A stretch of 64,000 nt of DNA from an uncultured Bacilli bacterium. GTDB taxonomy: Bacteria; Bacillota_I; Bacilli_A; RFN20; CAG-826. The notes beneath the pieces were generated by a model. The model saw nothing but the letters and a program-made list of their open reading frames with translations. It made no database searches and was not told the origin of the DNA. The stretch covers positions 7,535-71,534 of the forward strand of contig CAVRMZ010000001.1 of NCBI GenBank assembly GCA_963722445.1, written 5' to 3'. The stretch's first letter is position 1. Every line of letters starts with the position of its first letter. Both the position numbers and the translations under genes were made by a program. This document shows, in pieces, positions 60,801 to 61,099 of this stretch.

Positions 60801-60829
60801 TTGACAAGGGCCCTAAAATGGCATAGATT
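60801..60829 (+). promoter_or_regulatory. sigma70/SigA-type promoter of the riboswitch-controlled operon
   Basis: TTGACA, a 17-nt spacer, then TAGATT. It ends a few nt before the aptamer begins. Confidence 0.6.
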
Positions 60830-60832
60830 CAT

Positions 60833-60912
60833 AGTTGCAAAAAGCAAAACCAGAGTAATCTGGCGACGCAAAACTATAGGGCCTCTTGGAAAAGACGGTA
60901 GCCAGTTGCCAC
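60833..60912 (+). promoter_or_regulatory. c-di-GMP-I (GEMM-I) riboswitch aptamer
   Basis: AGTTGCAAAAAGCAAAACC-AGA-GTAA-TCT-GGCGACGCAAAACTATAGGGCC...ACGGTAGCCAGTTGCC. This matches the remembered GEMM-I hallmarks: GCAAA-CC, a hairpin closed by a GNRA tetraloop (GTAA), an invariant GACGCAAA followed by C-A-GGG, and a 3' GGTAGCC-G-TGCC. Confidence 0.75.
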
Positions 60913-60960
60913 CAAACAAAGATTAAAACTTTGTGGGCAACTGGGTTTATTGTCTTGTTT
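60902..60960 (+). terminator. candidate riboswitch expression platform (terminator competing with aptamer 3' strand)
   Basis: CCAGTTGCC-ACCAAACAAAG (sharing the aptamer 3' end) pairs with CTTTGTGGGCAACTGG (60929-60944). The U-rich GTTTATTGTCTTGTTT follows. Confidence 0.5.
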
Positions 60961-61099
60961 GGCACTTGGGTTCGATTCGCGAAAGACGCCCCGATCTCTT
61001 GGGTTCTAATGGTAAACGAGAGTTTGGTCGGAGCGAAATTCGCCTCCTCAGATGTTTTAGTTTGTCTCTCGAGGTTAACACCTCCAAAAAGGAGTCATT

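Follow-up and report, generated by a model that had tools for sequence, protein, structure and literature searches.

A class-I c-di-GMP aptamer of the A20 subclass with a predicted competing terminator upstream of a putative CoCoPALM-type surface operon in an uncultured Bacilli bacterium

The window analysed here is a stretch of 64,000 nucleotides (nt) from an uncultured Bacilli bacterium (GenBank assembly GCA_963722445.1, contig CAVRMZ010000001.1, positions 7,535 to 71,534 of the forward strand). Close to its 3' end, the region 60801–61099 lies between a small membrane protein gene and an operon that starts at 61100, and carries a promoter, an aptamer of the c-di-GMP-I (GEMM-I) family, a hairpin that shares a strand with the aptamer and a further stretch of leader. 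The operon encodes two predicted secreted β-rich proteins followed by a predicted McrB-like NTPase. We consider it likely that the aptamer, which has adenine at the nucleotide equivalent to position 20 of the Vibrio cholerae Vc2 RNA (A20), forms part of a terminator-blocking ON switch through which cyclic di-GMP (c-di-GMP) would induce a surface-filament operon of the type named CoCoPALM. The promoter, the aptamer and the competing hairpin comprise the following features, numbered from the first letter of the window.

60801–60829, + strand: sigma-70-type promoter, with −35 TTGACA at 60801–60806, a 17-nt spacer and −10 TAGATT at 60824–60829
60833–60913, + strand: c-di-GMP-I (GEMM-I) aptamer, Rfam RF01051
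60843, + strand: equivalent of Vc2 position 20 (Gs1761 A14, Bc2 A11), the last nucleotide of junction J1/2, which reads the first ligand base; A, not G
60844–60845 with 60868–60869 and 60850–60854 with 60859–60863, + strand: helix P2, capped by the GNRA loop GUAA at 60855–60858
60870, + strand: equivalent of A47, which as the adenine of J2/3 is intercalated between the bases of the ligand; first A to follow GACGC
60872–60875 with 60904–60907, 60879–60883 with 60897–60903 and 60884–60887 with 60892–60895, + strand: helix P3
60908–60910, + strand: J1/3 G-C (60908–60909) and the first 3' nucleotide of P1 (C60910), all inside the 5' arm of the putative terminator
60902–60944, + strand: putative aptamer-competing terminator hairpin, in which an internal loop separates a 9-bp base (CCAGUUGCC/GGCAACUGG) from a 6-bp top (ACAAAG/CUUUGU) that closes a 7-nt loop
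60945–60962, + strand: U-rich tract GUUUAUUGUCUUGUUUGG, directly after the hairpin, with no run beyond UUU

Rfam cmscan of the whole window placed RF01051 at 60833–60913 on the + strand with 60.1 bits against a gathering score of 35. The match covers the full model (positions 1–87); its expectation value (E) is 2.9e-9 when the window is scanned entire and 1.6e-11 when only the leader is, and cmscan of the leader returned no second Rfam family at E ≤ 10. The initial annotation had assigned the leader to GEMM-I from hallmark strings and had proposed the family threshold as a check; the assignment holds, and the strings GCAAAACC, AGA-GTAA-TCT, GACGCAAAA, GGGCC and GGTAGCCAGTTGCC are all present. 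Comparisons were made with fetched loci encoding relatives of the gene 1 protein (the L001–L016 series), among which L007 and L008 are close relatives (gene 1 proteins 80–81% identical to that of the window) and L012–L016 are intermediate (63–40%). In L001, L002, L003, L005–L008 and L012–L016, too, an RF01051 match (41–66 bits) stands directly in front of the gene 1 homologue or of its operon; orthologous leaders score 53.5–66.1 bits. When eight aptamers were aligned, 96.3% of the cells in the Rfam helices were paired and 10 of the 17 pairs were compensatory, both sides having changed; slid 3' partners gave 12–40% pairing, and none of 500 shuffles matched the real value. Between the window and L007/L008 one distal P3 pair changes from U-A to C-G, and the P2 loop changes from GUAA to GCGA, both of which are GNRA loops. 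Elsewhere this tetraloop reads GAAA (L003, L005, L006, L012–L016) or GUGA (L002, L010).

A60870 is invariant across all eight aligned aptamers. So are C60867, the equivalent of Vc2 C44, which is present with its partner G60901 (the C44–G83 interhelical pair), and C60909, which corresponds to Vc2 C92, the partner of the second guanine of the ligand. The tetraloop receptor in P3 is missing, the model positions CUAA...uAu being deleted from the window RNA in the cmscan alignment. Since GEMM members with a non-GAAA (GYRA) loop reportedly were commonly without the receptor in the original description of the class, we treat its loss as a subclass trait and not as a disqualifier. Judged by its sequence, the element is a genuine RF01051 member of the A20 subclass, and so adds one RNA to a riboswitch class already known. 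The arrangement differs in L010, where the GEMM-I aptamer (3279–3354) stands downstream of the gene 1 homologue (2241–2876), near the contig end, and presumably serves a gene beyond it; aptamer before gene 1 is therefore not a universal order.

A promoter scan of 60500–61300 found TTGACA-17-TAGATT as the sole promoter-like site (10/12 match), where the initial annotation had placed it. Both hexamers are kept in L007/L008 (6/6 and 5–6/6; 83–100% identity); the spacer between them has diverged to 29–65% identity, and the DNA from the upstream terminator to the −35 hexamer to 46–61%. The transcription start site (TSS) would lie near 60834–60837. The upstream gene at 60284–60667 closes with a strong terminator (60687–60712), so that the leader forms a separate transcription unit. 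As a neutral yardstick we used 4-fold degenerate sites, which are 58–67% identical between the window and L007/L008. Over the same comparison, identity is 93–100% for the aptamer core, 93–98% for the hairpin at 60902–60944, with changes confined to its loop, 84–95% for the U-rich tract and 77–87% for the distal leader. Promoter, aptamer and hairpin, conserved far above the 4-fold sites, are thus under purifying selection. The gene at 60284–60667, directly upstream of the riboswitch promoter, encodes a small membrane protein of 127 amino acids (aa); it is syntenic in the close relatives (L007 4188–4571), and the distant L002 also carries a homologue (161–526, 32% identity).

The hairpin arms are CCAGTTGCC at 60902–60910 and its complement GGCAACTGG at 60936–60944, the positions originally assigned to them. 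The 5' arm comprises the basal 3' strand of P3, G60908–C60909 of J1/3 and the first P1 nucleotide, and because 60902–60910 belongs to both structures, the hairpin and the ligand-competent aptamer are mutually exclusive. On its own the hairpin folds at −18.5 kcal/mol, and the region is more stable than shuffles (z = −2.28, 6/200). The minimum free energy fold over 60833–60962 is the hairpin conformer at −38.8 kcal/mol, against −30.4 kcal/mol for the best structure that retains the aptamer. In folds of the growing transcript, aptamer-like pairing persists until about 60936 and the hairpin takes over at 60940–60944. Hairpins of unrelated sequence occupy the same place in L001, L002, L003, L005 and L006, where the aptamer's last 6–13 nt form the 5' arm and a strong run of U comes next (UUUUUUAUUU, UUUUUUUUU, UAUUUUAUUU, UUUUUUUAUUAUU). 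Because these five more distant loci share a design in which the terminator overlaps the aptamer, we interpret the element as an ON switch. The competing terminator and ON direction that had been predicted for the operon at 61100 are also supported by the conformer energies and by the conservation of the hairpin.

In the mechanism that we propose, transcription would begin at the sigma-70 promoter and the 5' end of the mRNA would fold as the aptamer. Without ligand, the 3' strand of the aptamer (the base of P3, C60909 and the first P1 nucleotide) would pair with the emerging 60936–60944, and the long hairpin with its U-rich tract would halt most transcripts in vivo near 60950–60960. With ligand bound, the junction and P3 would be locked, the hairpin could not nucleate and the polymerase would read into the operon. 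At high c-di-GMP the cell would then make a McrB-like NTPase anchored in the membrane, along with two β-rich proteins of pilin/TasA-like type that are secreted. An A20 pocket predicts nanomolar, not picomolar, affinity for c-di-GMP, together with tolerance of 3',3'-cGAMP (3',3'-cyclic GMP-AMP). The genes under this putative control are listed below.

61100–62017, + strand: gene 1, 305 aa with a TTG start; N-terminal basic tail, transmembrane segment and β-rich domain
62107–63147, + strand: gene 2, 346 aa; N-terminal hydrophobic segment ending ...TIAWFAVSD, with the look of a TasA/SipW-type signal peptide, and a β-rich fold
63158–64000, + strand: gene 3, cut by the window end; predicted membrane-anchored, coiled-coil, McrB-like AAA+ NTPase with Walker A GISGTGKT

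Gene 1 matches no Pfam or NCBIfam family. Its own family has 963 representatives at E ≤ 1e-3 (50% clustering) and conserved motifs that read AFLG..G.FT and, at the C-terminus, RYT.V.WLEG.DP. The core of its AlphaFold2 model has a predicted local distance difference test (pLDDT) score of ~80, and the best Foldseek matches in the Protein Data Bank (PDB) are 7UEG, the archaeal bundling pilin AbpA (E 1.1e-3, probability 0.99, template modelling (TM) score 0.22–0.33), and 8AUR, a TasA fibre (E 1.7e-3). Gene 2 is modelled with a pLDDT of 83 and a predicted TM-score of 0.83, and its homologues follow gene 1 in L001, L002, L007 and L008. Gene 3 has a hydrophobic segment, GFGFWGWFFFILFLLLFLALLGAAAFLIGWLL, and then a heptad-like stretch, as read from its translation. 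Its L007 orthologue, available at the full length of 519 aa, scores 24.5 bits against AAA_5; for gene 3 there are further matches to McrB 6HZ4 (E 1.2e-5) and, over the core only, to PDC-M26A, a candidate model of PADLOC (130 bits). The NTPase is 43–69% identical across loci outside the window's own clade, with 43–56% for gene 3 against distant loci, and its GTPase-signature region reads GTANNDDST, which fits both the NxD pattern expected of CoCoPALM and NxxD.

Two tandem paralogues, 66% identical to each other, are encoded on the − strand at 58120–59028 and 59021–59941, divergent from the riboswitch operon. Their signal peptides look TasA/SipW-like (MKNKTKLVLGLASLLG...AGFAWFTTT), and at the C-terminus they share a W-I-E-G motif with genes 1 and 2. 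We found no riboswitch upstream of them, no Pfam family and no PDB sequence match, and sequence searches of TasA/camelysin, Pfam (including Peptidase_M73), NCBIfam and PDB gave no link for genes 1 and 2 or for this divergent pair. The paralogues may be further subunits of the same structure.

Synteny gives the order of the cassette as aptamer, gene 1, one or two gene 2 homologues, the NTPase and a protein of ~600 to >760 aa, together with a SipW/SEC11-type signal peptidase. It is represented by window positions 61100–64000, where genes 1–3 are visible, and by L001, L002, L004–L008 and L013–L016; the GEMM-I aptamer fronts the same cassette at at least 13 loci from diverse uncultured Firmicute-like lineages. 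The large protein (gene 4) directly follows gene 3 in L007/L008 and shares 46% identity with its L013/L015 counterpart. For L015/L016 a precomputed hit to DUF2357 (McrC N-terminal) exists but is weak, the tails of the protein are coiled-coil or low-complexity, and the L005 version has an EEARLA repeat; PADLOC and PDB searches with this McrC-like protein gave no match. An apparent convergent gene after three operon genes was dismissed, as the 297-aa minus-strand open reading frame (ORF) in L007 is just the antisense of gene 4, a gene that continues past the end of the locus. Signal peptidase homologues occur in L001, L002, L006 and L013–L016, and the L005 peptidase (7648–8397) carries the motifs SMAPT and GDN, with a match to SEC11A/C (E 2e-5). 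We also considered a known defence system, which was rejected because PADLOC matches the NTPase core alone (PDC-M26A) and none of genes 1, 2 and 4.

On sequence grounds the operon fits a CoCoPALM-type, McrBC-linked cassette. CoCoPALM was named and deferred by Bell et al. 2024 in two sentences (PMC11090510), which mention neither a riboswitch nor pilin-like genes; the literature searched contained no further CoCoPALM paper and none linking CoCoPALM to riboswitches. The window resembles the published system, whose N-terminal region is FtsB-like, in its McrB-like NTPase with a predicted N-terminal transmembrane and coiled-coil region (gene 3), and the relatives add a candidate McrC/DUF2357-like partner with coiled-coil or low-complexity extensions and a candidate signal-peptidase-family gene. 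It differs from that description in its riboswitch and pilin-like genes, and the window shows genes 1–3 alone. We infer that what the cassette makes is a filament or matrix at the cell surface, induced at high c-di-GMP. In relatives at 40–42% identity, genes typical of defence islands or mobile elements surround the cassette (L013 1–4656, L014 2287–4656, L015/L016 3435–3920). The defence-island-type genes in L013–L016 include AAA_14/DUF4143 ATPases, SLFN_AlbA_2, RelB/ParE and Bro-N, a hint that in some lineages the cassette is mobile or has a part in conflict.

The selectivity of these aptamers is determined mainly at position 20, and the cmscan alignment sets A60843 against the consensus G at model column 11. 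This nucleotide is unpaired, lies directly 5' of the first P2 pair and has the A47 equivalent 27 nt downstream. The placement agrees with published structures: in Vc2, G20 reads the first ligand guanine (Gα) via its Watson-Crick edge (PMC6140456) and is for that reason unpaired; in Vc2, Vc1 and Bc1, C44 lies 3 nt and G20 27 nt before A47; and in Gs1761, A14 ends J1/2 before P2, J2/3 consists of A41 alone and G74–C75 make up J1/3 (PMC6274999). Taking the G of GCAAA as position 20, which would give a canonical pocket, is ruled out by the published Vc2 and Gs1761 numbering. Adenine occupies this position in 9 of 13 related aptamers (window, L006, L007, L008, L012–L016) and guanine in L002, L003, L005 and L010, and A20 is retained across gene 1 identities down to 23–42%.

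The wild-type Vc2 RNA has picomolar affinity for c-di-GMP. Among natural A20 RNAs, Cbe 1-2 from Clostridium beijerinckii binds c-di-GMP at 30 nM against 463 nM for cGAMP, and Bc2, in which A11 is predicted to read Gα, responds to c-di-GMP in vitro and in vivo (PMC4933901). As natural A20 RNAs range from cGAMP-selective to c-di-GMP-preferring, A20 is necessary but insufficient for cGAMP selectivity. A60843 qualifies the ligand call and not the family membership, because Rfam keeps A20 RNAs in RF01051 and Bc2 works with c-di-GMP. Two genes for c-di-GMP turnover lie upstream of the riboswitch, a GGDEF protein at 57069–58025 (318 aa) and an EAL+GGDEF protein at 53486–56986 (1166 aa). Both GGDEF domains have the canonical Asp at the PleD-344 position, not the Hypr Ser, and an intact GGDEF motif; an HD_5 (HD-GYP-type) protein is encoded at 42614–43483. 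The adjoining canonical GGDEF and EAL genes make c-di-GMP the likely ligand, while the adenine at the specificity nucleotide, which the initial annotation overlooked, keeps this call short of certain. Genomic context and the A20 literature together point to c-di-GMP as the probable physiological ligand, bound with lower affinity than by G20 aptamers, with possible cross-reactivity to 3',3'-cGAMP. In L005 the first gene after the aptamer (4884–5654) precedes the gene 1 homologue and is EAL-like by eye; the riboswitch-induced operon there possibly includes a phosphodiesterase-like gene, and thus feedback.

The distal leader (60963–61099, 137 nt) had been described as further structured, but shuffles of the entire segment fold about as stably (z = −0.14, 83/200). 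It contains a conserved domain and, next to the start codon, a possible hairpin over the Shine-Dalgarno (SD) sequence.

60987–61035, + strand: conserved distal RNA domain, with an outer helix 60987–60996/61026–61035 and an inner helix 61014–61017/61022–61025, enclosing UUCUAAUGGUA
L007 4904–4914, L008 4906–4916, L012 1034–1044, L013/L014 4912–4922, L015/L016 4924–4934: UUCUAAUGGUA in relatives
61082–61094, + strand: possible SD-sequestering hairpin CTCCAAAAAGGAG, with CUCC at 61082–61085, AAAAA and GGAG at 61091–61094; the SD is AGGAG at 61090–61094

The 11-mer UUCUAAUGGUA (61004–61014) is invariant in seven leaders though its flanks diverge, and each locus of the A20 clade has it exactly once, the other loci not at all. 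In the enclosing helices 92.2% of the cells are paired and 7 of 13 pairs are compensatory, with slid controls at ≤43%; covarying arms include CCGAUC/GGUCGG, CUGACC/GGUCAG, CCAGC/GCUGG and CUAGAU/AUCUAG. No Rfam family matches the domain at 60987–61035, which by its covariation is a candidate cis-regulatory RNA motif outside Rfam. A scan of viral contigs for the aptamer together with UUCUAAUGGUA gave zero matches. Reading the 11-mer as a promoter −10 was rejected, as no conserved −35 accompanies it, and so was a small ORF in the distal leader, since indels in L007/L008 disrupt the frames of 16 aa and 42 aa, neither of which has an SD.

Other elements proposed for this region fared less evenly. 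The string GGAGCGAAATTCGCCTCC is present at 61030–61047, where it had been read as a local hairpin (GGAGCG...CGCCUCC). The closing pair of that hairpin is lost in L007/L008 and its 5' arm covaries with 60987–60992, so the sequence stands and the pairing does not: the covarying helix excludes the local hairpin, because both use GGAGCG (61030–61035). The 9-bp direct repeat CTTGGGTTC exists too, at 60965 and 60998 rather than at 60963 and 61000, and is a chance match by our controls; 11.7% of shuffles hold an exact 9-mer repeat, and the second copy is not conserved. As for the CTCC-AAAAA-GGAG element suggested to mask the SD, the sequence is there and pairing of the SD is predicted with a probability of 0.66–0.99 across the window, L007 and L008. 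Because neither arm varies, covariation is uninformative and lends the mask no support. The CUCC/GGAG hairpin has −4.6 kcal/mol, and a rival GAGGU/ACCUC hairpin (61071–61075/61080–61084) has −5.6 kcal/mol.

Several observations weigh against the terminator-blocking ON switch as we have set it out. The U-tract GUUUAUUGUCUUGUUU is imperfect, with 11 U in 16 nt and no run longer than 3, and a simple terminator scan made no call at 60902–60962, probably because of the internal loop. P1 has at most about three pairs, a figure contingent on the position of the TSS. In L013–L015 (~40% protein identity) the corresponding hairpin lacks a U-tract and the predicted fold is a different one, and a canonical terminator stands ~120 nt further on, beside the SD; the decisive element in the A20 clade may lie downstream. 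These L013–L015 terminators align with the window's 61030 hairpin (GAGGCG...CGCCUC followed by U5, or GAGGUAC...GUGCCUC followed by U6), and because they put a canonical terminator before the SD, the platform of the clade may be two-stage. In such a platform the hairpin at 60902–60944 would be the first element, and the output would be set by the 60987–61035 domain, the 61030–61047 hairpin with GUUUUAGUUUG and/or SD sequestration, resulting in dual transcription-translation control or in the action of a second factor recognising UUCUAAUGGUA. The distal leader is more conserved than neutral sites, its 11-mer is invariant within a covarying helix, the SD is predicted to be paired in the window and both close relatives, and Bc1 offers a precedent for a long platform with dual terminators and transcription-translation regulation (PMC11218506). 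However, thermodynamic modelling found no consistent coupling of the aptamer state to the distal domain, hairpin 2 or the SD. The second hairpin of the window is weak (−6.3 kcal/mol) with a U-run that starts 7 nt past the stem, the distal leader is not unusually stable, and in the distant G20-type loci a simple terminator suffices, with no such domain. We find a two-stage platform conceivable but rather doubtful. It is unlikely, too, that the leader is a composite regulator in which an A20 (GEMM-Ib-like, possibly bispecific) aptamer and the undescribed UUCUAAUGGUA domain, with an independent input from a protein, small RNA or small molecule, jointly gate the CoCoPALM cassette.

The identity of the ligand is the other point on which the evidence divides. 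Adenine at position 20 is the hallmark of the cGAMP-sensing GEMM-Ib RNAs, the A20G change in Gmet_0970 turns cGAMP selectivity into c-di-GMP selectivity (PMC6456294), and Vc2 G20A binds c-di-GMP at 53 nM and cGAMP at 120 nM. Furthermore, the response of Bc2 was established with c-di-GMP, cGAMP not having been tried there (PMC4933901). A GEMM-Ib-type sensor, answering physiologically to 3',3'-cGAMP or integrating both dinucleotides, would account for A60843 at model column 11 and for its retention in most of the related aptamers; natural Cbe 1-2, like Vc2 G20A, binds both ligands, and the McrBC-like proteins and defence-island setting of some relatives recall defence systems that use cGAMP. Against this, natural A20 RNAs outside Geobacter favour or answer c-di-GMP, the same cassette stands under G20 aptamers in L002, L003 and L005, the local cyclases are canonical Asp-type GGDEFs, and the ORFs scanned in the 64-kb window included no cGAMP synthase (CD-NTase, DncV or Hypr GGDEF). 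We regard cGAMP sensing as quite unlikely here. An OFF switch, or a decayed aptamer that no longer regulates, would have parallels in Clostridium difficile, where class-I riboswitches are almost uniformly OFF and several are non-functional (PMC6200980), and in Bc1, which binds ligand without regulating (PMC11218506). In this leader, however, the 5' arm of the terminator is the 3' strand of the aptamer, so ligand binding can solely disfavour termination, and the conservation of the aptamer with its compensatory changes speaks for purifying selection on a working RNA. Such a reading therefore seems highly improbable to us, and a c-di-GMP-responsive ON switch remains our preferred interpretation. 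The nature of its target is subject to its own reservations, as the fibre-subunit assignment of gene 1 leans on Foldseek matches of E ~1e-3 with low TM-scores, and gene 2 has no Pfam or NCBIfam family and no significant structural match in the PDB.

Among characterised RNAs, Bc2 of Bacillus thuringiensis, located upstream of cap (PMC4933901), offers a close parallel. Both are class-I aptamers from Firmicute-type hosts with a Gα-reading A (A11 in Bc2) and an A47 equivalent 27 nt downstream, and in Bc2 an intrinsic terminator competes with the aptamer to give a genetic ON switch for a cell-surface protein, the collagen adhesion protein. Bc2 controls a single adhesin gene, whereas the window has a multi-gene McrBC-linked cassette, and the Bc2 aptamer lies 76 nt downstream of its TSS, whereas that of the window begins at the 5' end. 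The GEMM-I prototype Vc2 shares the fold, the C44, A47 and C92 equivalents and the GNRA-capped P2. It has G20 and picomolar affinity where the window has A, it is reported as an off-switch, and the 11-nt tetraloop-receptor positions of its P3 are deleted in the window.

The Geobacter GEMM-Ib RNAs (Gs1761, pilM/Gmet_0970) share the A at position 20, and the pilM riboswitch is likewise a transcriptional ON switch with mutually exclusive aptamer and terminator, controlling pilus genes (PMC9262584). These RNAs are deltaproteobacterial and their ligand comes from a Hypr GGDEF (GacA), while the GGDEFs next to the riboswitch in the window are canonical and the window's cassette is found under G20 orthologues in other lineages. 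Cbe 1-2 is, like the window RNA, a Firmicute A20 aptamer, and it binds both ligands with a preference for c-di-GMP; for this RNA there are binding data alone, and its gene context is not comparable. Bc1 (PMC11218506) resembles the window in the ~200 nt between aptamer and start codon, in having more than one hairpin or U-run and in possible transcription-translation dual control. It differs in its G at position 20, in its two canonical terminators 28 bp apart and in having no counterpart of the UUCUAAUGGUA domain.

The riboswitch itself is ordinary, and its interest comes chiefly from the link that it makes between c-di-GMP signalling and an unexplored McrBC-derived cassette. Control by c-di-GMP argues that McrBC derivatives here build a surface structure associated with sessility. 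If the composite regulator were real, it would provide the first regulatory and functional handle on CoCoPALM, which would then be a second-messenger-induced surface structure and not a restriction system. The distal covarying domain is a candidate for a new cis-regulatory RNA motif, and the retention of A20 over long evolutionary distance offers natural material on what, beyond position 20, sets the selectivity between c-di-GMP and cGAMP.

The gene content of the wider window fits an anaerobic Firmicute-like chromosome. Two Fe-only hydrogenase-like proteins flank a SpoIIE-type phosphatase at 242–4561, three tRNAs lie at 41304–41604, a serine recombinase with a Resolvase domain is encoded at 43721–44329, and a LuxE/LuxC-like acyl-protein synthetase/reductase pair is found at 46240–48614.

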